Shown: in pieces, positions 12,168 through 28,027 of the stretch
Layout of the letters: each line of letters starts with the position of its first letter
Position numbering within the stretch: the first letter of the stretch is position 1
DNA from: Patescibacteria group bacterium
GTDB lineage: Bacteria; Patescibacteriota; Microgenomatia; Levybacterales; UBA12049
Reading direction: 5' to 3'
Assembly: GCA_035946335.1 (NCBI GenBank)
Contig: DASYZL010000006.1
Span: 1,772 to 65,771 of the forward strand
Length of the DNA stretch: 64,000 bases
Position numbers and translations under genes: made by a program
The notes under the pieces: model-generated
Told to the model about the DNA's origin: nothing
The model's input: the letters and a program-made list of their open reading frames with translations, nothing else
Database searches by the model: none

Positions 12168-15092
12168 TTACGGACAGACCCGGGCTTGTAACGTCACGGG
12201 AGATAATGGCTGTTGACTCATGTCAAGTGAACCGGTAAAAGGGTCTGCTTGTCCGTCAAGTGAGGTCAATTGCGGCAATCCAAATATATTTTCTGTCAGT
12301 TTTTCAGCTGATGGAAAACTATACATTGTGTGATCAATAAATCCGCGCTTGGCAAAGGGTGAAATAATAATTGCTGGCACTCGAAAACCATACATAATCT
12401 GGCCGTTTGAACCCTTCGGTGGAGCAACATGATCATAAAATCCACCAAAATCGTCCCATGTTAAAATAATAACTGTATTTGCCCAGAGCGCAGGATTACT
12501 CATGACCGCATTGATTTGTTGAACTGTCCAGTTTTCTCCCGTACAAATATTTGCCGGAGGGTGATCACTGACATTTGACGGCTCTACCAGCCAAGAAACA
12601 GCAGGAAGATTACCTGAAGATGCATCAACTGCAAACTGGGAATAGTTTACTACGTGTTGTTGCCATTGTGTTGTTTCCCGTATGTGTTTGATCGCGTCAT
12701 ATATTGACCAAATGTATCCGGATGTTCCCTGATCAGGTGCGTAGTACTTCCATGATAGAGAATGGGCATTGAGGAGGTCGCCAACCGTTTGAAAATTATC
12801 AAAACAGGGAAACACGTTTTGGATCGTTCCATTTGCATGACGCTCTTCTACGGTAGCATTTGCAGGTGAATCACATCCCCAGATACCTGCACTCGTAGGA
12901 TTTGCATCAACATCGTTATCCTGTCCAGCAATAGTAAAAAAGTGATTGGCAAAACTAGGTCCCAGAATTGTTGAAAAGAAATTATCATCCAGCGTAAAAT
13001 TTTGCGCATATTTCCAGTAATTCGATATATCTGATTGCAGAAGTTGAGAATCCGCTTCATCAGTTCCATTTTGCATGGCACCTCTAATTTGTGAGAATTT
13101 ATCCATCCTACCGTTATCATATGCCAGATGAGCTGAATTTGGAGAATGATCGATATCATTAAGTAAAGCTACAGGTTGATGATTCAGAGGATGTGACAGT
13201 CCGTTCGCGTCTTTATACGTTGTTGTTCCATTTGCCCCAGGAAAGGTGCCAAACATACTATCAAATGTCCGATTTTCTTTGTCCATAATAATGATGTGCT
13301 GTATTTTCCCTGCAACTGGAGTATTTGTGGGTGAAGGAAAAAAAGTTGGAGTAGGATTACCTGTAGGAGTTGGGGTGATAGAAGGAACAGTACCGTTACC
13401 CTGCTGCACGCTTATTTCCCGAAGGAAAAGATTATAATCAATGCCATCAACAACGCCGTCGTCGTTAATATCGGCTCCTGGAGATTGCGCTGTAGGAGGC
13501 TTTGTGCATGTTGGGGTTGTTTGCAAATCACCATAGCAACTCACAATTGCATTATAATCCAACAGGTCCAGTTGATCGTCATTGTCAATATCTCCGTTTA
13601 CCAGAGAAAGGGAAGGAAGGGTAATCGTTTGACCGGAAGTAATAGCGATGGTTCCGGGTTCCTGTTTTGAAAGAAATCCATCCATTTTCACTGTCACCGT
13701 GTATTGTCCTGAAGAAAGATTTGAAACGGAAAGAGAACCCTGGAAGTTTCCAGCAGACTGATTATACGAAACAGTCCCCTGCACTGGCATAGATGTACCT
13801 GCAGCAAGAAGGGTAACGATCACTGACCGTTGTTGATGGACAGGATTGGTATTCCCGCCACTATTTGCACTGACGCTATCACCACAATTTCCTAAACCAT
13901 GAGGACAAAGAGTGAGAGAAAGAGTTGTGGATCCTGTTGGAACAGGTGTCCCTGAGGAAGGAGTACTTGATGTGGGCGTTGGTGTTCCTGGGGGTGCTGA
14001 GGAAACCGTTGGCATTGGCGTACCTGCTGTCCCGGCAGACCCAAAAATTGTTGTATAAGCCTGTTTGGCAAGCGCTTCATTGTCAGCACCTATTTGATTG
14101 GTAGTCCCTGTCCAATTACTTGGTTCAAAATAGCTCAAACCTGCTGTATGAGATTGTAAGACAAAATTTGTCATTGCAGTGTTGTATGCCGGATAATCAC
14201 ATCGCCCACCCCACTCGTTGATTATCATACTTGCATGATGCGCATGGAGAAATGTTGCCTCCTGAGGTTTCGTGGTAGCTAACTCGCTTAAAGCCGTGGC
14301 ATTCGGTTCACCGCATTGTCCAGAATATAAATGCCTGTCAATAATGATATTTGTTTGAGTAAAGGGAAAAGGATTATATGGGTAGTTAGGATACTCAACC
14401 TTTAAAACATTAGGATTTCCTTTTTGCAACGCATCAAGCCACATCATATCATCGGCTTGAGGGTTTGGTTCTCCTGCATGGACACCTTCATTTCGAACAT
14501 CAAAAAATACCGCAGGATCATTCGCAAAAAGTGATGCCATACTCTGTAATGCTTGCGCGCCAACAGTCCCTTCATTGGTATTGATTCTGTTGGACATTTG
14601 ATCTTTGTTTAATTCTACGTATAGTCCCCGGGACTCAAGCGCTTTGACATAGGCTTTCACAAAATCCTGATAGTTCATATTTGCTGTAGGTACTGATGGA
14701 TTCGTCGTCCAATAGTCAGGGTGAAAACCGACACGAATCATATTAATTGGTACTTTTTGGAGGATTGCATCGACATAACTCATGTCTGTTGTATCTGTTT
14801 CATATTGTCCACTCGTGAATCCTGCTTTTTTCCCTTCTGCCCCTAATAAATAGACTTCACAACCAGTGGCATCAACCAATAAACCATTTTGGTCCAAATG
14901 CAGTTGTGCAAATGTGTAGGTTCCATCGGAGTTTTTTACTCTTCCTGTATGATTACAGTTTGTCATGGCTGCATATTGTTCTGTTTGCTGCTGTTGCAGG
15001 GAAAAAAGAACTGTTAGAGGTATAGTTACAGCAATAAAAAACGTTGCTAAACCGATATATTTTTTTCCACGCATAAAATGTCTCCTAAACAA
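12168..15092 (-). CDS. Large secreted multidomain protein: N-terminal GH5-like (clan GH-A) glycoside hydrolase, Ser/Thr/Pro linkers, dockerin-like Ca-binding repeats, C-terminal phosphoesterase (PLC/AcpA family)
   Basis: Signal/TM at the N-terminus. GH-A-like catalytic pattern (R..H; NEG; H.Y; INEWGG). Two dockerin-type loops [13 protein letters not shown] and [13 protein letters not shown]. The C-terminal [14 protein letters not shown] matches the phosphoesterase family motif ENRSFDHYFG. Confidence 0.7.
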
Positions 15093-15530: not shown

Positions 15531-16128
15531 TTAAAATGATCCAGTCTTAACTTCCCCTGCGAACTTATAATTGGCGACTATGACTCCATTTGGTGCAATT
15601 TTTCCTTCAACCATTTGAAGCGCAGATGGAACTGTTCCTTCTGCAAATAAACGCTTACCTCTTCCAAGCGTTAGTGGATATATTTTAAGCCAAAGCTCAT
15701 CTACCAAGTTGTTTTTCAAAAGAGTCTGGATAAGATTTCCGCTCCCATGTACTTGTAACTCGGGGCCATCTTTTGCTTTGAGTTTTTTAATCTGATCAAC
15801 AACATTATCTTTTACTATAATTGTCTTTTCCCAATCGTATGCATGGTCAGAACTTGAGACCACATATTTTGTTGCCTTATTAATACTTTCGCCTTCTTCT
15901 GGGTGATCAGGCCAAATAAGATTTAAAAATCTCATAAGTCTTTCTTCCAAGAAGCAAATCGAAAGGATGACCCATTTGTTCTGTCATGACCTTACCCATA
16001 AAATCATCAAAATAAGGGAATTGCCAACCACCGTATTTGAAGTCTCCACTTATATCTTCCTTTGGTCCACCAGGTGCCTGCATAACACCGTCTAAAGTGA
16101 TAAAAGAGAGAACAATAATTTTTCTCAT
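15531..16128 (-). pseudogene. Frameshifted dihydrofolate-reductase-family (RibD C-terminal domain) gene
   Basis: Two overlapping ORFs (15907..16128 N-terminal part MRKIIVLSFITLDGVMQAPGG...; 15531..15950 C-terminal part ...LQVHGSGNLIQTLL...LFAEG) together form one RibD_C/DHFR-like protein. The split implies a frameshift near 15907-15950 (or a sequencing error). Confidence 0.55.
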
Positions 16129-17190: not shown

Positions 17191-17249
17191 ATTGGAAGTA
17201 TACTAAAAAGTTCTGACAAAGTACATTGAGTACAACGTAAACAGAATTG

Positions 17250-17278
17250 TCGGACATGGATAGTATTCGAACTTTTTG
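17250..17278. repeat. 29-nt direct repeat, copy A (CGGACATGGATAGTATTCGAACTTTTTGG)
   Basis: 26/29 identical to copy B at 18155-18183. The two copies bracket the TauE/SafE gene. Confidence 0.55.
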
Positions 17279-17356
17279 GATACAAAATACTGAAAGTTTC
17301 TATGTTTCTATATCCCTAACTATATGTTCTAATAATTATTGAAGTATATTTTTAAC

Positions 17357-18073
17357 TTATTTTAAGATCAACAGTATCCCTGATAAAATCAAAATTATAA
17401 AAACAACTTTTCTGAATATCTCCTCTGAAGATTTAATATGCAATTTATGGCCTAACCAATTGCTTAAAATTAAAACAGGAAAACAAATAACAAATAGAAA
17501 CAATACTTGTCTTGTTATTAAACCATGAATAGCAAATAAAGGAATTTGTATGACCCCATTGAAAAGAAAAAAGATTAAACTGGTAGACCTAAAAAGATTT
17601 TTGTCCTTAAAAACACTTGATAAATAAAGAATAATAGGTGCCCCACCAACTGCAAATATAGCTGATAATATTCCACTTAATATGCCCGTAATAAAACCCA
17701 AAAGAATATTCGGAAGAATTGAAATCTTTTTATCTACGAAAAATATGATGACTGAAGAGACAGGAATAACAATGCCAAGTATTTTTACTAAAACAATATT
17801 TGAATCTAATACAAGAAAATGAACCCCAATAATTCCTCCTACTAAATTACCTAGTATCAATGGTATAAGTACCCAATACTGTATATTTTTGTAAAAAGTT
17901 TTTATGAGAAGTGCATTACTTGAAAAACCAAGGAGATTTACAAATGGAGAAATTGTTGTTAATGGATATAATAAGACAAGCAAAGGAACTGCAACTATTC
18001 CACCACCAAACCCTGCAAAAGCGTTAACAATAAATGCCAGAAAAATAATGACTGCGCTAATTAACATTAACAC
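17357..18073 (-). CDS. TSUP (TauE/SafE) family anion exporter
   Basis: 8 TM helices. N-terminal ...AGFGGGIVAVPLL... motif is characteristic of TauE/SafE. Confidence 0.75.
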   Translation of the reverse strand: MLMLISAVIIFLAFIVNAFAGFGGGIVAVPLLVLLYPLTTISPFVNLLGFSSNALLIKTFYKNIQYWVLIPLILGNLVGGIIGVHFLVLDSNIVLVKILGIVIPVSSVIIFFVDKKISILPNILLGFITGILSGILSAIFAVGGAPIILYLSSVFKDKNLFRSTSLIFFLFNGVIQIPLFAIHGLITRQVLFLFVICFPVLILSNWLGHKLHIKSSEEIFRKVVFIILILSGILLILK

Positions 18074-18154
18074 AAACTAATTGTAGCAGCTTCGAATCCA
18101 AGTTTGGAGAAGTATAGTTTGATATAGTTATTTGAGACTAACTGAGTTTGCTGG

Positions 18155-18183
18155 CGGACATAGACACTATTCGAACTTTTTGG
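18155..18183. repeat. 29-nt direct repeat, copy B (CGGACATAGACACTATTCGAACTTTTTGG)
   Basis: Pairs with copy A at 17250-17278. Confidence 0.55.
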
Positions 18184-18288
18184 CAAACAACACAGGAACG
18201 ATTTTATATTCCAATTTATAGTTAACATTCATTCTCCTGCTTGACACAATTTAATTGTTAATAAATAATATCCTCAGGGGGAGGATAT

Positions 18289-18558
18289 ATGGCATACAGA
18301 CCAAAAGACACACAAGAAAGAATACTGCATCGTCTCAAAATAGCAAAAGGACATTTAGAGAAAGTTATTAAGATGGTTGAAGATGATACATATTGTATTG
18401 ATGTGCTGCAACAGCTCTCAGCAGTAGATAGTGGACTTGAGGAAACAGCCAATGTACTTCTTGAACATCATTTACGAACATGTGCTTCTGAAAAGATGAA
18501 AAAAGGTAAAACAGATGAAGCAATTGAAGAAATAATGACAGTATTCAAGAAAAAATAA
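18289..18558 (+). CDS. csoR: CsoR/RcnR family metal-sensing transcriptional repressor
   Basis: 89 aa. ...RLKIAKGHLEKVIKMVEDDTYCIDVLQQLSAV...EHHLRTC... with the C/H/C metal-ligand arrangement of the CsoR family. Heads a copper-related gene cluster. Confidence 0.75.
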   Translation: MAYRPKDTQERILHRLKIAKGHLEKVIKMVEDDTYCIDVLQQLSAVDSGLEETANVLLEHHLRTCASEKMKKGKTDEAIEEIMTVFKKK

Positions 18559-19722
18559 ATGAACTTATTCCATAACATTCTTATGTCTTTTCTCATGGCT
18601 TTTTACATGCTGTGGGATGTCCTCTGGCCTCTTATATTAGGCTTTGCTCTTTCTGGCGTGGTGCAAGCAGTTGTATCGCATGCAAAAATGGCTGAAACAC
18701 TTGGAGATGATTCTCCCAAAAGTGTTACGCTCGCAACCCTATTTGGGATTGCATCAAGTTCTTGTTCATACGCCGCTATTGCTCTAGCACGATCTATTTT
18801 TCGTAAAGGTGCAAGTTTTTCCAATGCGATGGTTTTTGAACTTTCTTCAACAAACTTAGTTATTGAGCTAGGAGTAATTCTTTGGGTATTTATGGGATGG
18901 CAATTTGTCGCAGCAGAGTTTACAGGAGGGATTATTATGGTTATACTTCTTGCCCTTATTTTTCGTTTTACTTTATCAAGAAAATTAGTGAAAGAGGCCA
19001 GAAGACAAGCAGAAAAGAATGTAATGGGCAAAATGGAGGGCCACGCAGGGATGGATATGAGTCTGACAGAAGGAACCATTTGGTCACGGTTACTTAGCAA
19101 AAAAGGCTTTACCGCAATTAGTCATTTTTTCATTATGGATGTTGCCTCAATTTGGACAGATATTCTTATTGGCTTTGGTATTGCAGGAATACTTGCAGTA
19201 TTTGTGCCAGAGTCATTCTGGCAAGCATTTTTCTTTACCAATCATCCAACCCTTGCATACATTGAAGGACCCTTGGTTGGACCACTTGTAGCCATGCTTT
19301 CGTTCGTTTGTTCTGTGGGAAATATTCCGCTCGCAGCAGTATTATGGAAAGGTGGCATTAGTTTTGGAGGAGTTGTCAGCTTTATCTTTGCAGACCTTAT
19401 TGTTCTGCCAATACTCAACATTTATAGGAAGTATTATGGATGGAAGATGATGGCATATATTTTAGTTACTTTTTATGCAACAATGGCAGCGGCAGGATAT
19501 ATTATTGAGTTTCTTTTTGCTGTACTCCACATTATTCCAACAAATAGAAATGTTGTTATGATAAGCTCGGGCATTTCTTGGAATTATACAAGTATTCTTA
19601 ACATCGCCTTCTTGTTGATTGCTGGTATATTGACGATAAGATTTTTACGCACAGGCGGCCCAGCAATGCTTAAAATGATGGAGATGGACCCAAAAGATAT
19701 GAAGGACTGTTGTAAAGTATAA
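18559..19722 (+). CDS. Predicted permease (DUF318/ArsP-like two-repeat membrane permease)
   Basis: ~10 TM helices. Cys-containing motifs (SSCSYAAIA; CSVGNIPLAAVLWKGG) resemble the ArsP/DUF318 permease family. Abuts the CsoR stop codon. Confidence 0.55.
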   Translation: MNLFHNILMSFLMAFYMLWDVLWPLILGFALSGVVQAVVSHAKMAETLGDDSPKSVTLATLFGIASSSCSYAAIALARSIFRKGASFSNAMVFELSSTNLVIELGVILWVFMGWQFVAAEFTGGIIMVILLALIFRFTLSRKLVKEARRQAEKNVMGKMEGHAGMDMSLTEGTIWSRLLSKKGFTAISHFFIMDVASIWTDILIGFGIAGILAVFVPESFWQAFFFTNHPTLAYIEGPLVGPLVAMLSFVCSVGNIPLAAVLWKGGISFGGVVSFIFADLIVLPILNIYRKYYGWKMMAYILVTFYATMAAAGYIIEFLFAVLHIIPTNRNVVMISSGISWNYTSILNIAFLLIAGILTIRFLRTGGPAMLKMMEMDPKDMKDCCKV

Positions 19723-19724
19723 AT

Positions 19725-20774
19725 ATGGGAAACACAAATTTATTTGCTATCTTTCTTACAGGTCTTATTACAGGTGGACTCACCTGCATGGCTGTACAGG
19801 GTGGACTATTAGCAGCTACACTTGCACAATCTGAAGAAGAAAGACTTGAAGACAAGGCAAGAGGAGGGAACGCTCTTCCCATAGTGGCATTTCTTATAGC
19901 CAAACTGATTGCATATACTGCTCTTGGTTTTTTGCTTGGAATGTTAGGATCATTTTTTAACCTTTCCATTCAAACAAGGGTAATTTTAATGGTGGCAGTT
20001 GCTGTCTTTATGGTTGGGACAGCACTCAACATTCTGGAAGTCCATCCAATTTTTCGTTACTTTATTATTCAACCACCACGATTTTTAACAAGACTGGTCA
20101 GAAAACAATCAAAAAGTCAGGCAATGTTTGCTCCAGCGCTTCTTGGTGCATTTACAGTCTTTATTCCTTGTGGCACAACACAAGCAATGATGGCATTAGC
20201 CATTGCATCTGGTAAGCCTATTCTTGGTGCAGCAATTCTTTTTTCGTTTGTTCTTGGTACTTCACCTGTCTTTTTTATCCTTGGATATTTTGCAACAAAG
20301 TTGGGTGATATGTTTCAACAAGGCTTTATGCAACTTGCTGCTTTTGCAATTATTTTACTAGCAATTTTCAATATCAATAGCGCAATTGCATTAAGTGGTA
20401 GTAGTTGGACAATTGGGAGTGTTATAGGTAATGCAGCAACAAGTTTTTGGTGTACGGTGAGTTTTTGTTCACCTTCTTATTATCAAGCACAGCAGGCAGG
20501 CAATCCATTATCTGATGCAACAATTAACATAACTTCTGTTGGATATACGCCGTCTCTTTTTGCGGTCAAAGCAGGAAGCAAAGTGACACTTCACTTGCAA
20601 AATACCAATGGTGCAGGGTGCCAACAAGCATTTAACATACCGAGTCTTGGTATTCAGAAAATTGTCCCTGTTGGTTCATCTGATACGATTAGCTTTACTG
20701 CTCCAAGTCAACCACAGCAATTAGCTTTTGTGTGTAGCATGGGAATGTATAGAGGAGCAATTCAAGTCTTATGA
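19725..20774 (+). CDS. Membrane protein (DsbD_2/TauE-like TM core) with C-terminal cupredoxin-like metal-binding domain
   Basis: N-terminal TM region with TGGLTCMAVQGG. C-terminal ~110 aa soluble domain with a H...C.MGM pattern (TLHLQN...FVCSMGMYRG) suggesting a cupredoxin-type Cu site. 4-nt overlap with the downstream CopZ gene. Confidence 0.45.
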   Translation: MGNTNLFAIFLTGLITGGLTCMAVQGGLLAATLAQSEEERLEDKARGGNALPIVAFLIAKLIAYTALGFLLGMLGSFFNLSIQTRVILMVAVAVFMVGTALNILEVHPIFRYFIIQPPRFLTRLVRKQSKSQAMFAPALLGAFTVFIPCGTTQAMMALAIASGKPILGAAILFSFVLGTSPVFFILGYFATKLGDMFQQGFMQLAAFAIILLAIFNINSAIALSGSSWTIGSVIGNAATSFWCTVSFCSPSYYQAQQAGNPLSDATINITSVGYTPSLFAVKAGSKVTLHLQNTNGAGCQQAFNIPSLGIQKIVPVGSSDTISFTAPSQPQQLAFVCSMGMYRGAIQVL

Positions 20775-20992
20775 CAAAGAAACAAAAATTCAAAATAACT
20801 GGAATGCACTGTACAGCTTGCACTTTGGAAATAGACGATGCGTTAGAGGAATTGGACGGAGTAAAACAGTCAAATACTCATTATGCAAAACAAATAACAG
20901 AAGTGGAATTTGAAGAGGAGAAAGTTTCGCACGTGAAAATTATTGAGGTAATAAAAAAAGTTGGGTATTCAGCATCTGCTTCGACTGAATAA
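20771..20992 (+). CDS. copZ: Heavy-metal-associated (HMA) domain copper chaperone (CopZ-like)
   Basis: 73 aa with GMHCTAC metal-binding motif (GMxCxxC) and a ferredoxin-like size. Confidence 0.75.
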   Translation: MTKKQKFKITGMHCTACTLEIDDALEELDGVKQSNTHYAKQITEVEFEEEKVSHVKIIEVIKKVGYSASASTE

Positions 20993-21026: not shown

Positions 21027-21437
21027 TTATTTAAAATTTTGCTGGGCATATGTAAAAAACCATAAAATTCTTGGTAGTAATCCTGTATAACCTAAAATTG
21101 CTAGTATGAACAAAATAAACTCCACCAAACCTAACTTTCCCAAGGTTTGAGACCGATGACTGAAATCAATTATGCCTAACAGGAAATAGAGCGCAATACT
21201 TCCAACAGTGCCACAAATAATATGTATCCATATTTGGTGCGCACGATAGGAGAATGATTTTTCGAGCTTACCATTTGGTTTCCATATCAGATCATTAAAC
21301 CAACCATAATATGCTCCTAATAATATTCCTGAAGCAAGAAAAAAATAAATCCCATTTTGTTTTAAGGATATGCCAATAATTACTAAAACAATCGCTGCAA
21401 AACGAGCTATTAATGATTGACAGATTTCATTTTTCAT
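21027..21437 (-). CDS. Small 4-TM membrane protein (third gene of OLD operon)
   Basis: 136 aa with four hydrophobic helices. Starts 2 nt after the OLD-family gene stop. Confidence 0.5.
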   Translation of the reverse strand: MKNEICQSLIARFAAIVLVIIGISLKQNGIYFFLASGILLGAYYGWFNDLIWKPNGKLEKSFSYRAHQIWIHIICGTVGSIALYFLLGIIDFSHRSQTLGKLGLVEFILFILAILGYTGLLPRILWFFTYAQQNFK

Positions 21438-21439
21438 AT

Positions 21440-23500
21440 TTATGCAGTTATGCTATCAAAAATCTTAGTTATCTCATCAATTTTTGCTGTATTAGCTTGA
21501 TCTTTTATCCAATTCTCAAAATCGTTTTTACAAAATGCTATAACAACATCCAATCCTTTTCCAGTAGTACCCAGATATTCTTCAAGTTCTCCTTCTTGGA
21601 GGATATATATTTGTTTTTTATATAAATCAGCAATACTGGTTTGTAATGTTGAATAGGTACTTGCATCAGTTTTTATGAAATTTACTAAGTCCTCTGAAGG
21701 AATATATCTAACAAGCATATAACCTCTCATTTCTTTAAGTTTTTTAAAGCCTTGCTTCGTCGGGTGACTAATATATGAAGATAGAGATGATAGCATATTA
21801 ACTCTGTCTGTCGAACCTTTTTTGCTTAATACATTAACAGCAATATTTGTATAGACACTATTTAAATATGCCTTATTAAATTTGTTTAACTGGCTCCTTG
21901 AAAGTAAATTAAAACTCACAACATTATCCCAATCACCAATAAAATATGTTTTAACCTTATATTTATTTAAAAAGTTTTTCCATAATTCAAAACTACCTTT
22001 TCCAGAAATATATAAAAACTCCAGTTCAGGGTCTTTATTTTTAATTTCTTTGTAGTAATCATAAAATTTCCTATAAAAATACTCATCACTATCTCCTTCA
22101 ATGAGAACAACTTTCTTACTAAAGAATATCTTTATTGAGTTTGTATAGCTTAAAATTCTTACCAATTCTGCTTCATCATTAGTTATTTTTGGATGGATAA
22201 CTTTTGTAAAACCTCGTACTAAACTAAAACGATAAGTATTATTAATGACCTTGGCATTAATAAACATTGGCGAATGAGTGACAATTATAAATTGTATGTC
22301 CAGATCGTCTTTAATCTGATTGATAACATTCAAGAATTTCTCTTGCATCTGGGGATGAAGATGTGTTTCTGGCTCATCAATTATCAGTAAACCTTTTTCA
22401 ATATCATACCCATATAGACAAAAAATAAAATGAATTATTGCTTTCTGTCCAGCACTTAAATCGCTATATTGAACTTCATTTTTCTTTTCATCGATAAATT
22501 TAAAAGAGTAATTTAAGCTTAAAAGATCAAGTTTATTAATATCGAGTTGAATGTTTAAATAACCTAAGAGTAACTTATTTATGTTTTTAACAATTGGTAA
22601 ATTCAGAGTTAATTTTCTTGCTTTCACTTTTCCATATTGGTCATAATATTCATTAAATCTGAAGGCAAGCTCTTTTTTAACATACATAAATGCAACTGGT
22701 TCTTCATTACTACTAGCACGAGTGTTTTCATTTACATCTTTTGTTTTAAGCTCTGCTGTCCTAGTAAATTCTTTTGCATTCACAGGATAGTTCCCGTCAA
22801 ACATATTATATGTCCTGAAGGAACCCATGAGTGCAAATGTCTGCTTCAACTTATTCCATTGCTTATTCTCAAATGTATTACCAATCTGAATTGCTTTTTG
22901 TAAAAATTCGAAATACTCAAAGTACTTTTCAATAAAATTGACGCACTGATTTTGTTGACGATTGACTCGATGAAATGCAGGTTGGTTAATTGGATTAGTA
23001 TCTTCATATTCAAATTCAATATCATTAGTGTTATCAATATCTTGTTTATTGAAATTAGTTTCAAAAGAGAGACCACCTACGTTTGAGTAGTTGGAAAAAA
23101 TAGTATTAAAGTCTGTAGCGTTGTCAAAAATAAATTTGAGATTATTTTTATCATTTTGATTTAAATTTAAGGAAATTTTAATTTTCCTAACTGAGTTGGT
23201 GCTTTTTCTGTTTGGATTCAAATAATTGTAGTTCCTAGGCGCTTCAGTAATTGTTTGACCAAGAGGTACTTGCCCATTCGATCTGTGGTTGAATACGTTA
23301 TCTTCACTGTAAATGGCTTGCCTGTACAATATATTTTTAAATAATTGGTTTAATATCTCTAAAAAATTACTTTTACCAACACCATTAGGACCAATGAGAA
23401 TGTTTAAACCTTTATCAAAATTTATCTTTGGGGAATGGTTAATGTCATCTCTATATTCAAAACTTAAAATATTGGAAATTTGAATATAGTTTATCTTCAT
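21440..23500 (-). CDS. OLD-family nuclease (N-terminal ABC-type ATPase + C-terminal TOPRIM)
   Basis: Walker A GPNGVGKSN; signature-like LSAGQKAI; Walker B LLIIDEPETHLHP; H-loop VTHSP. TOPRIM VVLIEGDSDEY plus DxD FIGDWDN. Very AT-rich and Asn-rich. Confidence 0.8.
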   Translation of the reverse strand: MKINYIQISNILSFEYRDDINHSPKINFDKGLNILIGPNGVGKSNFLEILNQLFKNILYRQAIYSEDNVFNHRSNGQVPLGQTITEAPRNYNYLNPNRKSTNSVRKIKISLNLNQNDKNNLKFIFDNATDFNTIFSNYSNVGGLSFETNFNKQDIDNTNDIEFEYEDTNPINQPAFHRVNRQQNQCVNFIEKYFEYFEFLQKAIQIGNTFENKQWNKLKQTFALMGSFRTYNMFDGNYPVNAKEFTRTAELKTKDVNENTRASSNEEPVAFMYVKKELAFRFNEYYDQYGKVKARKLTLNLPIVKNINKLLLGYLNIQLDINKLDLLSLNYSFKFIDEKKNEVQYSDLSAGQKAIIHFIFCLYGYDIEKGLLIIDEPETHLHPQMQEKFLNVINQIKDDLDIQFIIVTHSPMFINAKVINNTYRFSLVRGFTKVIHPKITNDEAELVRILSYTNSIKIFFSKKVVLIEGDSDEYFYRKFYDYYKEIKNKDPELEFLYISGKGSFELWKNFLNKYKVKTYFIGDWDNVVSFNLLSRSQLNKFNKAYLNSVYTNIAVNVLSKKGSTDRVNMLSSLSSYISHPTKQGFKKLKEMRGYMLVRYIPSEDLVNFIKTDASTYSTLQTSIADLYKKQIYILQEGELEEYLGTTGKGLDVVIAFCKNDFENWIKDQANTAKIDEITKIFDSITA

Positions 23501-23502
23501 AT

Positions 23503-24021
23503 TTATTGTTTTATTACTTCTTTAATATTTCCATCCTTGTCTCTTAAAATAGCAGTCATTGTCTCCTTAAGATTTATATGATCTCTTAAAACGATCGATT
23601 TTGTAATTCTTTTCTCAACAAAAAAAGTAATCAAACTAAAAATCAAAGCCCCAATAGTCGATAATATTGTGACTATGTCTTGGGATATTAACGTGAAATG
23701 CGTTAAATGCATCAAGAGGGACGATATCGACGCAGATGCAGAATTAAAAAGGACCTTCAAGAACGGATATACTGCTACTCCCGCTGATATTGCAGTAAGG
23801 ACGAGCATCACAATTTGCAATCGGTAGTTTGATTGTTCCAATTTTTGGCTTTGTCTATTGGAGCTTTCAATAGTACTATTTAACTTCTTAATTTTCGTTA
23901 GTAGATCATCCAACATGAATATTGTTTCGACCTGTGTTGAAATAACATGCTGATTATGTGGAGTACCAGTCGTTGGGTTTGCTTGCATTTCTCGAAGGCT
24001 TCGCTTTAATTCTTCTTTCAT
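23503..24021 (-). CDS. Small 2-TM membrane protein with N-terminal coiled-coil-like segment (first gene of OLD operon)
   Basis: 172 aa. Polar N-terminal ~75 aa, then two hydrophobic helices. Its stop is 2 nt before the OLD gene start, suggesting translational coupling. Confidence 0.5.
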   Translation of the reverse strand: MKEELKRSLREMQANPTTGTPHNQHVISTQVETIFMLDDLLTKIKKLNSTIESSNRQSQKLEQSNYRLQIVMLVLTAISAGVAVYPFLKVLFNSASASISSLLMHLTHFTLISQDIVTILSTIGALIFSLITFFVEKRITKSIVLRDHINLKETMTAILRDKDGNIKEVIKQ

Positions 24022-24350
24022 ATGATAATTGCTTGCATTATCCCACTTTTAGCTTGCTATCTCAATATACTTACAGGGTTGGACAACAGATATCTTTACT
24101 TACAGACTTGGGAAGTGTCTCTCTAAACTGGCACAAAATTGTGGAATTTAGCCTCGGGACGTGTGCCATATCTCCTGTCGCTTAACTTCCTGAATTCCTT
24201 GAAGCTAATTGTGCGTAATGATTCTTGAAGTTTAGGGACACTATTGAGCGAAAAAACATCAAAAATGGAAACAAACCTGGACAGGCTTCTGCGTATAATA
24301 CACGCTCATTGACTCCGTGGAAATGTCCAGCTATTTATTTTTATTATCGG

Positions 24351-25004
24351 CTACTGAAGATTGAAAGTTGATCTATGTTCTTGCCCACCAGAGAAAGCGC
24401 CTGTTTTTGGGTCTGTTGTTCCACCAACTACACAATCAAGAGTTATTGTTGCTGGTTTTGTCTGGTAGTTATTGAAACGTTGTTGTTCTGCATTAGCAAA
24501 ATTACCCCAGCCAATACTTTCTGTTTGTCCTGCATTTACCACAAACCCATCCGATTGAAAGTTATCTCCTTGTGGATCAGTCTCATTGACTACCGCATTA
24601 CATTGATCCCATTCTGTTGTTTCCTGATTTGTTATGTACAATGCTGTGTTATCAAATGTCACTTTTGCTTTAAGCGGGTAGCGTGTTGCTTGTCCCTTTT
24701 CCAGAGCATCTTGGGATTTCATACAGTCGACCATTTGAGGTGTTCCTAAATACTGCGCACAAGGGTCCGTAGTTGGCGTAGGACTTCCATTTGTTGTACT
24801 TGCTGGTGTTGTTGTATCTGTTGTTGCTGGAGAAGTTGAAAACAAAGACAGCATGAACTTTATTCCAAAGAACACAATAGCAGCTAAAACAACCAACGTA
24901 ACTACTGTCTGAGCAGGTGTTGCCAATTGCTTCCCACATTTTGGACAATTTTTCGCTTTTGGGTCTTTGATTTGAGCTTTACAGTATTTGCACATCCTCA
25001 TCAT
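24351..25004 (-). CDS. Zinc-ribbon / single-TM / extracellular-domain protein
   Basis: N-terminal CKYC...CPKC zinc ribbon, one TM helix, a Thr/Pro-rich linker and a C-terminal ~130-aa domain. Divergent from the XRE regulator. Confidence 0.55.
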   Translation of the reverse strand: MMRMCKYCKAQIKDPKAKNCPKCGKQLATPAQTVVTLVVLAAIVFFGIKFMLSLFSTSPATTDTTTPASTTNGSPTPTTDPCAQYLGTPQMVDCMKSQDALEKGQATRYPLKAKVTFDNTALYITNQETTEWDQCNAVVNETDPQGDNFQSDGFVVNAGQTESIGWGNFANAEQQRFNNYQTKPATITLDCVVGGTTDPKTGAFSGGQEHRSTFNLQ

Positions 25005-25112
25005 AGGTAATGGAATGGTAACACATAGTATCCCTCAAATCAACCATTTTTGAAGCCAAAAGGATACTGACAGTTGGTTTTGATTAAAATAGTAGCTTGC
25101 TAATCTTGAAGA

Positions 25113-25325
25113 ATGATTACGGAAAATGACAAAAGATTGGGAAAAAGAATAAAAAAACTCAGAAACGCAAAAGGATTAACACAAGACCAGCTTGCTGAAA
25201 AGGCAGGAATTAGTATGAAATATGTTCAATTTATCGAGAACGCCCACAGGATACCTGCGCTAAAAACTTTATACAAAATCGCTCGAGTTCTTGGTGTTAA
25301 AGTTGAAGATATCTTCCCCTTTTAA
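25113..25325 (+). CDS. XRE-family helix-turn-helix transcriptional regulator
   Basis: 70 aa. LRNAKGLTQDQLAEKAGISMKYVQFIENAHRIPALKTLYKIARVLGV is a canonical HTH_XRE. Confidence 0.8.
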   Translation: MITENDKRLGKRIKKLRNAKGLTQDQLAEKAGISMKYVQFIENAHRIPALKTLYKIARVLGVKVEDIFPF

Positions 25326-25759
25326 CCACTTCGTTTACAGACTTGGACAGTGATTTGGATTGATATGGTAATCCAATCTTGACAAGACAATAAATTTGTT
25401 TTAATCTTTAATTAGGTCCCTAGTGACCCACATGGTTTGATTTGTCACAATAGTCCTATCCTCAAAAATTAGCGACTCGACTGTGCTAGTACCTACAGAT
25501 TTCTGAAAGGTTTTAGCTTGTCGAGTTTTTTTATGAGCAGCCTTTCAAGGCTGTTTTTTGTAGCAACTGGGGAGACTATTTGTGCAGGTTATCCGTTTAT
25601 GTTCCCTGCTTGGTTCTCCCCAGGCAAGGAAGATAAACGGATTTTTTATGTTATCAAAAGAAGCTGTGCTGGAGTATCAAGAAGAATACAGAAAAATACA
25701 TGGCAAAATCATCTCTTTCGATGAAGCGATGAGGCAAGCAGAAGAATTACTTAAATTAT

Positions 25760-26191
25760 TTGATGCAATTTACAAACCCATTAAAACCGAGTGGGTTAAA
25801 AAAAATAAAAAATATGGAAAGCATAGATAAGTTACTAAAAAACCATAAAGTTAATAACTTAACAGTAAACAGTAATAGTAAAGATATACCTACTGTTAAC
25901 AGTAGTACTGTATACAGTAGTAAAACCTTTGAGGATAAATTGGATGAGTTAATTGAAAGCGAAGATACTACAAAAGAAGGTCTCGCAAAATATATAGCAG
26001 AAAAACTGGATGATACAAAAAGTTTAACTCTGCATATTCTTTTAGTAAAAGAGCATAAGTCCCAAAAATTACTTGAAGCACTTAATTTTACTTTGGACGC
26101 TTGGAGAAATCATAAAATTAGGACATCCAAACCTATCTATTATATTGCAATTTTACGAAGGTGGAAAATGAAAGTAAATTTTCGTACTTGA
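25760..26191 (+). CDS. Hypothetical protein (uncertain; contains the palindrome cluster)
   Basis: 143-aa ORF with low-complexity N/S/T-rich sequence spanning the inverted and direct repeats at 25856-25919. May be non-coding regulatory DNA instead. Confidence 0.25.
   Translation: MMQFTNPLKPSGLKKIKNMESIDKLLKNHKVNNLTVNSNSKDIPTVNSSTVYSSKTFEDKLDELIESEDTTKEGLAKYIAEKLDDTKSLTLHILLVKEHKSQKLLEALNFTLDAWRNHKIRTSKPIYYIAILRRWKMKVNFRT
25891..25919. repeat. Two adjacent perfect 14-bp palindromes TACTGTTAACAGTA and TACTGTATACAGTA, preceded by direct ACAGTA repeats
   Basis: Read directly: 25891-25904 and 25906-25919. AACAGTA occurs twice in tandem at 25861-25874. Lies ~330 bp upstream of the serine recombinase gene. 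Confidence 0.6.
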
Positions 26192-26249
26192 TAGTACTTA
26201 TTGATGATTAATATAATGGTAACTGACAGTAACCACTATGTGTTAAAAT

Positions 26250-28016
26250 ATGGCATTTTTTGATTACAATTTGAAGGAAAAATTACAAGAATATAAATTC
26301 GGTGCGTATTTACGACGTTCTTCGGAAGACAATGAAGATAAGCAAGTACGAAGTATTGAGGGACAACAGCAAGACCTTCAAGAAGTCAGCACAAAACTGC
26401 GTTTATCAAAACTGAAAAAATATGATCCCGAAAGTAAGTCTGCATTCAAAATCGGTAGACCAATTTTTAGTCAAATTATACAAGATATTGAAAATGGAGT
26501 TATTGACGCATTACTTGTTTGGCATGCAAATCGTATTTCACGAAATTATGGTGATGGTGGAAAATTTGTGCAGTTAATGTCTGAGGGAAAATTAAAAATT
26601 GTTTTAACACCTTTTGGAGTTTTTGAAAATACTCCGAGAGACATGGAATATCTCATGAATGAATTTACTCGTGCGACTAGGGACAGTGGAGATAAATCAG
26701 ACGCAGTAAAACGAGGAAACCGTATAAAATTAAAAGCAGGTTATATTCCTAGTGGCAGACTATCAGAGGGCTACGATCATGTTAAAAATGAGCGAGGTGA
26801 ATCAGTAAACGGCACTAATAGTAATTTCACATTACTAAGGAAAACAATTGAGTTGGTGTTAAATGGAACGCATACACCAATGGAGGCATTGGATGTATTA
26901 AATAATGAATGGAAATATCAGACAAGAAAAACTAAAAGATTAGGAGGGAAATCACTCGCAAAAAGCACATTTTATCGTCTGTTATCGAATCCAAAATCGT
27001 ATGGTCTCATTATTAGCGCAGAAGGAGAATTTACCGCTGAGTTTCCCCCACTAATGACAAAAGAAGAATATGAGAAAATACAAATACTTCTTGGTAAGAA
27101 AGCAGGCAGAAGAAGAACTCCAAAAACGTGGGCATATACAGGTGAAATTACTTGCGACAGCTGCAGTGGATTTATAACAATGGAAGATAAATGGCAAGTT
27201 ATTTGTCCTGTTTGTAAAACAAAATTCCATAAATCCTCGGATAGATTTGCTTGTATAAATTGTCATACTCCAATAGAGGAAATGAGGAATCCAAAACTTC
27301 TTCATTATACTTGGTTGCATTGCACACGGCAGAAACTTGCAGATGGAACCAAATGCAGGCAACCGTACCTCGCTGTTGATAATTTCGATGGACAAGTCCA
27401 AAGCCTCATTGAAAAATTTACTATTCCAGAAGGATTTGCCAAATGGGCAATTAAATGGTTAGAAAAACTAAACGATCAAGAAGTACAACAAAGAACAGTA
27501 ATAAATACTAATCTCCAAAAATTTCATAATGATGTTCAAAAACAGATTGACGATCTGTTGGACTTACGATTAAAAGGACTTATCGACGATGCAGAATATC
27601 AAAAGAAGAAAGAAACGCTACTTCTGGAAAAGAAGGAGGTAAACCAAAAATTACAAGTTACTGATAAGCGAGCAGATGAATGGTTAGACCTATGTGAGAA
27701 TACGTTTAATTTCGCTACTTATGCGCATATATGGTTTGCCAAAGGAACGACTAATCAAAAACGTGCAATACTTCATGCACTTGGATCGAACCTAATATTA
27801 AAAGATAAAGTTTTATTGATACAACAAGCTAGACCATTTATGCTACTTGCTGGAACGAAAGAAAAAGTAGGAATTAAATTGCAAACAATCGAACCTAACG
27901 ATCAGCTTGATGTAGTAGCCCAAAAGCTCGGTTCTGAGGCTTCCAGTCTTGACTTGCTGCCGAGCAGGGATTCGAACCCCAATAAACAGATCCAGATTCT
28001 GTTGTCCTACCATTAG
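26250..28016 (+). CDS. Large serine recombinase (resolvase/invertase-type catalytic domain + recombinase domain + zinc ribbon + coiled coil)
   Basis: N-terminal YLRRSSEDNEDKQVRSIEGQQQ (catalytic Ser region). Cys cluster CDSC...CPVC...CINCH (zinc-ribbon recombinase domain). Coiled-coil C-terminal region. The 3' end overlaps the tRNA-Gln on the opposite strand. Confidence 0.85.
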   Translation: MAFFDYNLKEKLQEYKFGAYLRRSSEDNEDKQVRSIEGQQQDLQEVSTKLRLSKLKKYDPESKSAFKIGRPIFSQIIQDIENGVIDALLVWHANRISRNYGDGGKFVQLMSEGKLKIVLTPFGVFENTPRDMEYLMNEFTRATRDSGDKSDAVKRGNRIKLKAGYIPSGRLSEGYDHVKNERGESVNGTNSNFTLLRKTIELVLNGTHTPMEALDVLNNEWKYQTRKTKRLGGKSLAKSTFYRLLSNPKSYGLIISAEGEFTAEFPPLMTKEEYEKIQILLGKKAGRRRTPKTWAYTGEITCDSCSGFITMEDKWQVICPVCKTKFHKSSDRFACINCHTPIEEMRNPKLLHYTWLHCTRQKLADGTKCRQPYLAVDNFDGQVQSLIEKFTIPEGFAKWAIKWLEKLNDQEVQQRTVINTNLQKFHNDVQKQIDDLLDLRLKGLIDDAEYQKKKETLLLEKKEVNQKLQVTDKRADEWLDLCENTFNFATYAHIWFAKGTTNQKRAILHALGSNLILKDKVLLIQQARPFMLLAGTKEKVGIKLQTIEPNDQLDVVAQKLGSEASSLDLLPSRDSNPNKQIQILLSYH

Positions 28017-28027
28017 ACGACTCGGCA
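27957..28027 (-). tRNA. tRNA-Gln (anticodon CTG)
   Basis: Reverse complement reads TGCCGAG-TC-GTCTAATGGTAGGAC-A-ACAGAATCTGGATCTGT-TTAT-TGGGGTTCGAATCCCTG-CTCGGCA. It has a 7-bp acceptor stem, anticodon loop AUCUGGA (CUG) and a GGTTCGAATCC T-loop. CCA is not encoded. Confidence 0.7.

Follow-up and report, generated by a model that had tools for sequence, protein, structure and literature searches.

A large serine recombinase element at the 3' end of a tRNA-Gln gene in a Patescibacteria genome

Why does the gene of a large serine recombinase (LSR) run into a tRNA gene on the opposite strand, and what does this tell about the DNA beside it? The question is raised by a 64,000-nucleotide stretch of contig DASYZL010000006.1 from a Patescibacteria group bacterium (assembly GCA_035946335.1), called the window below. 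An initial annotation, made from the letters alone, had placed there an integrated element bounded by a tRNA-Gln gene and driven by the recombinase. This core idea holds, with a matching left attachment site and a full-length LSR. The element is very probably a unit of 9,806 bp, from attL at 18148 to attR at 27959, which its own LSR placed at the very 3' end of the host's tRNA-Gln(CTG) gene. It spans about 18.15-27.96 kb and not the 21.0-28.0 kb first proposed, and the 'copZ' gene taken for its neighbour lies inside it with the whole csoR-permease-DsbD/cupredoxin-HMA cluster. The tRNA is the only one that ARAGORN finds in the 64-kb window, and Rfam family RF00005 scores it as full-length (55.3 bits, 27957-28027). 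It lies on the strand opposite to the recombinase, as had been noted, and its 3' end does point toward the element. The open reading frame (ORF) of the LSR enters the tRNA gene from that end, for 61 nt by the ARAGORN coordinates or 60 nt by those of Rfam, rather than the ~59 nt first given.

Where does the element end on its left side? The motif [DE]x[VI]RT[YWF], taken from the tails of family members that do not abut a tRNA, was searched in six frames of the window and occurs at two plus-strand sites, 18163 (LSLLADIDTIRTFWQTTQERFYIPIYS, followed by a stop) and 17259 (..DSIRTFWIQNTESFYVS..). An nhmmer DNA profile of attL, built from six relatives with the window left out, matches the 64 kb at the same two places only, 18148-18222 (E=1.2e-14) and 17248-17323 (E=9.3e-6). 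The first of them is the attL of the present element. It has the core TTGCTG (18148-18153) in common with the LSR/tRNA junction at 27954-27959, so that attL and attR share 6 nt, and it holds a detached coding remnant of the native LSR tail, ADIDTIRTFWQTTQERFYIPIYS, which ends at a stop at 18223-18225. A search for att sites had been suggested earlier as a check, and this is what it yielded. When LSR codon 570 is joined to the sequence after 18153, an open frame of 593 aa with a family-typical tail results. Residues 1-570 of the present protein are encoded by the element, and residues 571-588 (PSRDSNPNKQIQILLSYH) are an antisense translation of tRNA-Gln. The tRNA gene is host-derived from about nt 1 to 71, and its discriminator and 3' trailer come from the P arm of the element. 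The overlap of ORF and tRNA is the signature of an attP inside the recombinase gene, which the initial annotation had missed. The crossover in the window would lie within 27957-27959.

Is the recombinase a complete enzyme? A protein truncated or inactive on alignment had been named as a finding that would speak against the element; the LSR is full length and its catalytic residues are kept. It carries a Resolvase domain (PF00239, E=1.9e-13, residues 19-130). Among 34 LSR homologues R22, R70, R95 and R98 are invariant, S24 is kept in at least 90%, and the zinc-ribbon cysteines C302, C305, C319 and C322 are invariant. In a profile search of PDB it matches the SPbeta integrase (E=2.6e-15, residues 5-325 of the latter), with the YLRRS motif aligned. 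The Pfam families Recombinase (PF07508) and Zn_ribbon_recom (PF13408) were undetected in the window LSR at E<=0.01 and were found in homologues. An AlphaFold2 model of the free-form homologue P0004 has a predicted local distance difference test score (pLDDT) of 86, with long helices 397-444 and 450-501 forming a coiled-coil hairpin. Foldseek matches the model to the full-length SPbeta, phiC31, Bxb1 and LI integrases, with E down to 1e-19. The window protein is a canonical LSR, with recombinase domain, zinc ribbon and inserted coiled coil.

Is the arrangement peculiar to this locus? A protein search with the LSR gave 118 homologues, many of which, at 40-66% identity, end in a tRNA-antisense peptide ..LLP.RDSNP..LSYH. 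A total of 161 loci were compared: the window, 80 from species-representative genomes and 80 from metagenomes. The genome loci all come from metagenome-assembled genomes or uncultured assemblies. Most of these are labelled Patescibacteria or candidate phyla radiation (CPR) and some other bacteria or archaea, labels that may be binning errors. A convergent tRNA lies at the 3' end of the LSR in 108 of the 161 loci, and the ORF enters it in the same phase relative to nt 73 in 103 of the 104 that could be measured. There are 11 tRNA types among the targets: Gln (46), Ser (20), Asn (13), Met (10), Lys (4), Glu (3), Pro (2), Trp (2), Arg (2), Phe (1) and Tyr (1). The read-through into the tRNA is 12-174 nt long, with modes at 12 and 60, and ends at the first stop. 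Because its length varies so widely, the tRNA-encoded residues are a passive consequence, whereas the entry into the tRNA is not. At least 24 other loci have sites built like attL, 2.6-9.8 kb 5' of the LSR, and in several of them two such sites stand in series.

Some features of single family members were also observed. Bins labelled Thermoplasmatales, Pacearchaeota, Thermococci, Nitrosotalea and Gammaproteobacteria/Pseudomonadales contain members (L046, L064, L020, P0025); these are probably mis-binned or mislabelled CPR contigs, and DPANN hosts are possible. In two loci (L004:1504-4443 and L005:10001-12220, 58-61% identity) the LSR ends in ..LLYLTV and a stop, which is neither a tRNA-type nor a P'-type tail. 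There a second, divergent LSR gene follows about 200 nt after the first, with a different junction type. At least 14 contigs stop inside or at the tRNA-LSR 3' end (L007, L016, L020, L030, L041, L043, L066, L069, L076, L079 and others), and such assembly breaks would fit either population heterogeneity between occupied and empty sites or repeated tRNA sequence. A GC-rich hairpin with a T-run, at most 46 nt downstream of the tRNA and antisense within the C-terminal codons of the LSR (3' coding region, minus strand), occurs in 8 of 59 loci against 0.5 expected from shuffles (L036, L048, L051, L063, L067, L068, L070, L077). In this subset of relatives the host tRNA seems to receive a terminator from the element, placed inside the LSR gene. 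The LSR 3' end of the window has only a weak candidate at chance level (27780-27763, 175 nt away).

Where on the tRNA does the exchange take place, and what is recognised there? In attR the T-loop octamer ATTCGAAC starts 10 nt after the core, and in attL and attP-type junctions the octamer RTTMGAAC starts 15 nt after it. The window, more than 24 loci and the allele pairs all show this geometry. For the LI integrase, Rutherford et al. (PMC3783163) placed the motif of the zinc-ribbon domain (ZD) at half-site positions 16-24 in attP and 11-19 in attB, a shift of 5 bp. The shift of the octamer agrees with this rule and with the site design usual for LSRs, an attP of about 50 bp and an attB of about 40 bp with the ZD motif 5 bp nearer to the centre in attB-type half-sites; the left arms P and B are less clear. 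Assuming that the centre is at nt 72/71, the octamer would take half-site positions 12-19 in B' and 17-24 in P'. Blocks of identity between attL and attR are 4-13 nt long and fall within tRNA nt 65-78. What the blocks of 16 loci have in common, judged by eye on the printed site sequences, is nt 73-71. A locus in the P-P' state (L012) and two in the P-B' state at tRNA-Gln (L100 and L097) are 100% identical over 11,707 nt and diverge directly after TGGCTG (nt 76-71). L104 behaves in the same way against L101 and L102 over 11,659 nt, again with the breakpoint after TGGCTG. The paired contigs include LCBB01000004.1 and Ga0155155_143 in the P-P' state, and Ga0209417_1000079 and Ga0075722_101 in the P-B' state. 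From the identity blocks and the breakpoints of the allele pairs, the crossover is therefore placed in the last two acceptor-stem base pairs or at the discriminator, which would put strand exchange at nt 72/71 or 73/72. The identical alleles in both states are indirect evidence that the LSR would act on attP and attB. The B' half-site consists of the 3' strand of the acceptor stem and the T-arm, and its T-loop octamer would be read by the zinc-ribbon domain. The recombinase domain would read the acceptor stem, the part that differs among the clades for Gln, Ser, Asn, Met, Lys, Glu, Pro, Trp, Arg, Phe and Tyr tRNAs. An exchange at the 3' end would leave the tRNA intact.

Two further sequences were looked at in connection with the sites. 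GTTCTGAG was tried as a symmetric left-arm motif and rejected: both the window and L083 have it 15 nt to the left of the core, but it is unconserved across clades and confounded by coding. In L086 (6161-6265), a tRNA-Gln(CTG) without an LSR has its own T-arm repeated in inverted orientation 15 nt further on (CTTGGATTCGAACC). The resulting order GTTCGAAT-N15-TTGCTG-N10-ATTCGAAC, in a gltX-PAP2-dgkA neighbourhood, has an attR-like geometry without a recombinase and could be a scar or a natural attB.

What happens to the protein when its own gene contains the attachment site? As the 3' end of the LSR gene contains attP, an enzyme of 593 aa ending in ..LLADIDTIRTFWQTTQERFYIPIYS would be made from the free form, and one of 588 aa is encoded by the integrated form. 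Two LSR alleles occur in either junction state, the break falling exactly at the crossover, and both types of tail are thus present on identical alleles; integration therefore replaces a conserved C-terminal tail. Is this tail conserved as DNA or as protein? In the tRNA-Gln clade, seven sequences gave a proportion of synonymous differences (pS) of 0.24 and of nonsynonymous differences (pN) of 0.18 over the P' half-site, a conservation at the DNA level. In the 13 codons beyond it, pS is 0.77 (saturated) and pN 0.36. The position of the tail stop is conserved in L087, L089, L091 and the window, and other clades have a tail of the form ..VRTW[IV]M.N.E.F.[VI]PSF... Judged from these sequences, the free-form enzyme carries a C-terminal peptide of some 20-25 aa that is under selection and attached by a flexible linker; the integrated form lacks it. 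Because the tail is under constraint at the protein level, it probably matters for the free, integrating form. One tentative and rather speculative scenario is that the family consists of modular, naturally retargetable and state-sensing tRNA integrases. The universal T-loop would anchor the zinc-ribbon domain and the recombinase domain would set the acceptor stem and hence the tRNA. The tethered tail would bias the free form to integration and its absence the integrated form to excision or silence, with or instead of a directionality factor.

Several points weigh against this account of the element and its enzyme. No empty site or excised circle was found for the window element. The empty-site search via GltX reached a closest database relative of 68% identity, and look-ups of the exact LSR and DgkA proteins gave nothing beyond a single 12.5-kb Logan contig, identical in arrangement and from a sample of the same kind. 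None of the attP-type contigs is demonstrably circular, and no whole contig was found to have terminal repeats. Some of the P-P' junctions are internal to long contigs, in many cases with another LSR at a distance of 8-10 kb, and these are probably tandem arrays and not free forms. Tandem arrays would need recombination with a hybrid site, which canonical LSRs disfavour. A recombination directionality factor was not identified. The B arm, on the host side left of the core, has no conserved motif across loci, and attB is therefore markedly asymmetric. The numbering of half-sites presumes a centre at nt 72/71, and the exact crossover dinucleotide is one that we infer. The tail comparison covers only seven sequences, and in the AlphaFold2 model of P0004 the tail is a low-confidence helix (pLDDT <50) after a disordered linker, with no docking information. 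As for the flanks, synteny with gltX-neighbourhood relatives runs from dgkA rightwards and ends exactly at dgkA/tRNA-Gln. It is informative for the right side only, and its stop at the tRNA would be consistent with an island, as weak evidence at this distance. In L085 no tRNA follows dgkA, and in L086 a tRNA-Gln(CTG) lies 2.5 kb from dgkA with no LSR.

Is the element then a fixed remnant, integrated once through its LSR and now simply chromosomal, since the tail-less isoform could not excise it? That neither an empty site nor a circle nor population heterogeneity has been shown at the locus favours this explanation. So does the loss of the conserved tail from the integrated isoform, and from the decayed site at 17.25 kb it is clear that insertions of this type do degenerate where they sit. 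However, attL at 18148-18225 is intact: it has the core found in attR, and both its tail ORF and the place of the stop codon are conserved. The enzyme is complete and keeps its catalytic residues, and identical alleles of relatives occur in both junction states. With these facts on the other side, we regard a fixed remnant as unlikely.

Could the element be a temperate phage? The divergent pair of an XRE regulator (+) and a zinc-ribbon membrane protein (-), which the initial annotation had called lysogeny-switch-like, is indeed present beside an integrase, and among 140 cargo proteins of related elements two match small terminase and two Phage_CRI. But the 9.8 kb hold no capsid, portal, tail or lysis genes by Pfam, and neither virion nor conjugation genes were found in the element. 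The LSR has no relative in the IMG/VR scan, and PHROGs gave one weak match, of unknown function, on the attP-type contig L083. The pair is thus unsupported as a sign of a prophage, and a prophage with an XRE-based lysogeny switch is very unlikely here. The cargo of 26 delimited relatives includes restriction-modification systems, HTH_17 and LexA-like regulators, NUDIX proteins and hydrolases, together with two rolling-circle Rep-like proteins and the two small-terminase matches. These are small (4-11 kb) integrative cargo elements.

The first reading, an AT-rich defence island of about 7 kb at 21.0-28.0 kb with its left end beside the HMA/copZ gene, has in its favour that GC falls from 0.38 to 0.30 at about 21.0 kb and that the orientation of genes switches there. 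Its distinct composition is, however, confined to 21.0-24.0 kb. The OLD module has a GC of 0.301, the part from 24.0 kb to the LSR end about 0.36 and the window 0.383, a mosaic that is to be expected inside elements of this family because their cargo is diverse. No att-like sequence lies near 21.0 kb, the P' profile matches in 64 kb being those at 18.15 and 17.25 kb, and the tRNA end is not repeated elsewhere in the window, where blastn-short gave only chance-level matches of at most 15 nt. Such an island is highly improbable. Least credible of all is that the overlap is an accident of ORF calling, with the recombinase ending upstream of a merely adjacent tRNA: the read-through simply runs to the first stop and the tRNA-encoded residues are themselves unselected, but no family member has a stop before the crossover, the entry phase is nearly invariant, attP-type copies continue the same frame into the conserved tail, and the breakpoints between states lie inside the ORF.

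The preferred reading, an element placed at tRNA-Gln by its own LSR, also bears on a second proposal of the initial annotation, a composite island at 15-28 kb. This was only partly right, in that a second attL-like site at 17.25 kb flanks a TauE gene. In its P'-type half-site, ATTCGAAC stands at 17265-17272; the remnant that codes for the tail (..DSIRTFWIQNTESFYVS..) is degenerate and the core is altered, with GAATTG/TTG-TC in place of TTGCTG. The site and the TauE gene that it encloses are read as what is left of an earlier insertion, and the gene, lying between two attL-type sites, is probably left-over cargo.

Other observations concern sites of this type. Serial P'-type sites upstream of one LSR occur in L035 (2987, 3861), L061 (3956, 4308), L079 (663, 1837) and L071 (3001, 5343). 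Counting the pair at 17.25 and 18.15 kb in the window, their spacing is 0.35-2.3 kb and their left arms are sometimes near-identical; they may be tandem-insertion remnants or small units without an LSR. A T-arm-like sequence, GCAGCTTCGAATCCAAG, lies at 18083-18110 (+), 49 nt left of the attL core in the gap that separates attL from the start of TauE, and may be a piece of an earlier att arm.

How does this system compare with known ones? The integrases of LI/A118, SPbeta (SprA), Bxb1 and phiC31 have, like the present one, resolvase and recombinase domains, a zinc ribbon with coiled coil, short att sites, a short core shared by attL and attR, and the octamer 5 bp farther out in attP. They differ in that the target here is a tRNA 3' end and not a protein-coding gene, that the presumed ZD motif is the universally conserved T-loop, that attP lies within the integrase ORF so that the C-terminus is exchanged, and that the hosts are uncultured Patescibacteria. 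In SSV1-type fuselloviruses, too, the integrase gene contains attP and a tRNA gene is targeted; the enzyme is a tyrosine integrase, and integration splits the int gene in two. Here, unlike in SSV1, the exchange is limited to the last ~23 codons and leaves the ORF open. Classical tRNA islands use a tyrosine integrase and leave a direct repeat of part of the tRNA. Here there is neither: no tyrosine recombinase (Phage_integrase) is present among the ORFs at 15-29 kb, blastn-short of the window found no repeat of the tRNA 3' segment at the distal end, and attL and attR share only 4-13 nt. With tRNA islands and tycheposons the family has in common cargo beside a tRNA whose 3' end faces the element, degraded old insertions that build up at the distal side and targets split by integrase clade. 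Of 937 Prochlorococcus elements, 27 carry an LSR (10.1101/2020.12.28.424599). The nearest analogue is mycobacteriophage BPs, where attP lies in the repressor gene and integration removes an ssrA-like degradation tag, so that free and integrated C-termini differ as they do here (PMC4557955). In BPs, however, a repressor is switched and the integrase is of the tyrosine type, whereas here the serine integrase itself is switched, and its tails (..IRT[FY]W..F[YF][IV]P.., ending in ..FYIPIYS, ..FYIPNYN or ..VPSF..) are unlike the ssrA tag.

LSR integration, tRNA-adjacent islands including a few LSR-bearing tycheposons, and an attP within a gene (BPs) are thus already known. In a literature search of limited reach, which is no proof of novelty, we found no account of an LSR clade specialised on tRNA 3' ends, of the T-loop as a distal att motif or of an attP embedded in an LSR ORF. 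tRNA goes unmentioned in the largest LSR survey, which dealt with isolate genomes and with targets that code for proteins (PMC10083194), and other discovery pipelines require Pfam Resolvase and Recombinase matches (PMC12884075). Approaches of these two types would probably miss this clade. The elements described here are precisely delimited, with att sites at base level, for CPR bacteria, in which the mobilome is poorly defined and genetics not yet possible. They also indicate that serine integrases can exploit tRNA genes by a route unlike that of tyrosine integrases, with no copy of the tRNA, a crossover in the last bases of the acceptor stem and the T-loop apparently as one recognition module. 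Since one geometry serves related enzymes at no fewer than 11 different tRNAs, the family amounts to an experiment of nature in the retargeting of LSR specificity, which is the main limitation of these enzymes in genome engineering. An attP in the integrase ORF gives two isoforms tied to the state of integration, an unexplored control of directionality or expression that is now directly testable.

Table 1. Att sites, tRNA and genes of the element and its left flank (window coordinates)
Feature	Position	Strand	Basis
Decayed attL-like site (attL1)	17244-17323	+	regex and motif search; nhmmer E=9.3e-6; sequence reading
TauE/SafE-family membrane transporter	17357-18073	-	Pfam PF01925 E=2.5e-26; GC 0.29
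attL of present element (B-P')	18148-18225	+	motif search; nhmmer E=1.2e-14
attL parts: core TTGCTG; 15-nt spacer; ATTCGAAC; stop	18148-18153; spacer; 18169-18176; 18223-18225		
Cargo module 1 (metal homeostasis)	18289-20992	+	Pfam matches; inside attL-attR; GC 0.384
CsoR-type metal-sensing repressor	18289-18558	+	Pfam
ArsP_1-type permease	18559-19722	+	Pfam
DsbD_2 + cupredoxin membrane protein	19725-20774	+	Pfam
HMA metallochaperone ('copZ')	20771-20992	+	Pfam
Cargo module 2 (defence): 136-aa membrane protein, OLD, 172-aa protein	21027-24021	-	GC 0.301
OLD-family ATPase/TOPRIM nuclease	21440-23500	-	Pfam AAA_15, AAA_21, OLD-like_TOPRIM; PADLOC 'Old' E=4.3e-29
Zinc-ribbon membrane protein, divergent from XRE	24351-25004	-	weak Zn_ribbon_3/DZR_2 matches
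XRE-family helix-turn-helix regulator	25113-25325	+	Pfam HTH_3 E=5e-19
Small conserved protein, probably ~60 aa from internal Met at ~25648	25582-25830	+	BLASTP matches in 13 loci
143-aa hypothetical protein, immediately 5' of LSR	25760-26191	+	ORF list; one homologue, L026
LSR, integrated-state isoform, 588 aa	26250-28016	+	Pfam; SPbeta profile match; homologue fold
attR (P-B')	27931-27977	+	sequence reading; allele-pair breakpoints; geometry vs PMC3783163
attR parts: P arm GTTCTGAG; 15 nt; core TTGCTG (tRNA nt 76-71)	27931-27938; 15 nt; 27954-27959		
attR B' part: 10-nt spacer after core, then ATTCGAAC, antisense of T-loop (nt 60-53)	27970-27977 (octamer)		
tRNA-Gln(CTG), intact	27956-28027	-	ARAGORN; Rfam RF00005 55.3 bits
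Reconstructed attP junction: ..GTCTTGACTTGCTG joined to GCGGACATAGACAC..; also written GGTTCTGAGGCTTCCAGTCTTGACTTGCTG joined to GCGGACATAGACACTATTCGAACTTTTTGG			
Reconstructed attB junction: ..CTAACTGAGTTTGCTG joined to CCGAGCAGGGATTCG..; also written TTATTTGAGACTAACTGAGTTTGCTG joined to CCGAGCAGGGATTCGAACCCC			

What does the element carry? Since attL lies at 18148-18225 and the element is about 9.8 kb long, the genes for CsoR, the permease, the DsbD-cupredoxin protein and the HMA protein are cargo (Table 1). The OLD gene had been recognised from the start. Its product has an ABC-type ATPase (AAA_15, residues 1-414) and an OLD-type TOPRIM domain (OLD-like_TOPRIM, 459-525), and 'Old' is its best PADLOC match. 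The two small proteins flanking it have no family match. BLASTP of the window ORFs against the ORFs of whole fetched loci, up to 10 kb either side of the LSR, showed that besides the LSR only two genes of the window element recur in other family loci. One is the XRE-type regulator, with counterparts in 11 of them. The other is the ~60-aa protein, whose 13 matching loci include the attP-type contig L083 and which lies 5' of the LSR wherever coordinates are listed. It has no Pfam or PADLOC family and is a candidate directionality factor or regulator.

Left of the decayed site, a low-GC (0.34) stretch contains two overlapping ORFs of 139 and 73 aa at 15531-16128 (-). Both match RibD_C, at profile positions 70-188 and 1-55, and the pair looks like one dihydrofolate-reductase-like gene split by a frameshift. 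Further left, at 12168-15092 (-), a secreted-looking protein of 974 aa combines a GH5 cellulase, Pro/Thr-rich linkers, a dockerin-like segment and a phosphoesterase of the phospholipase C type, a fusion that is unusual for a CPR genome.

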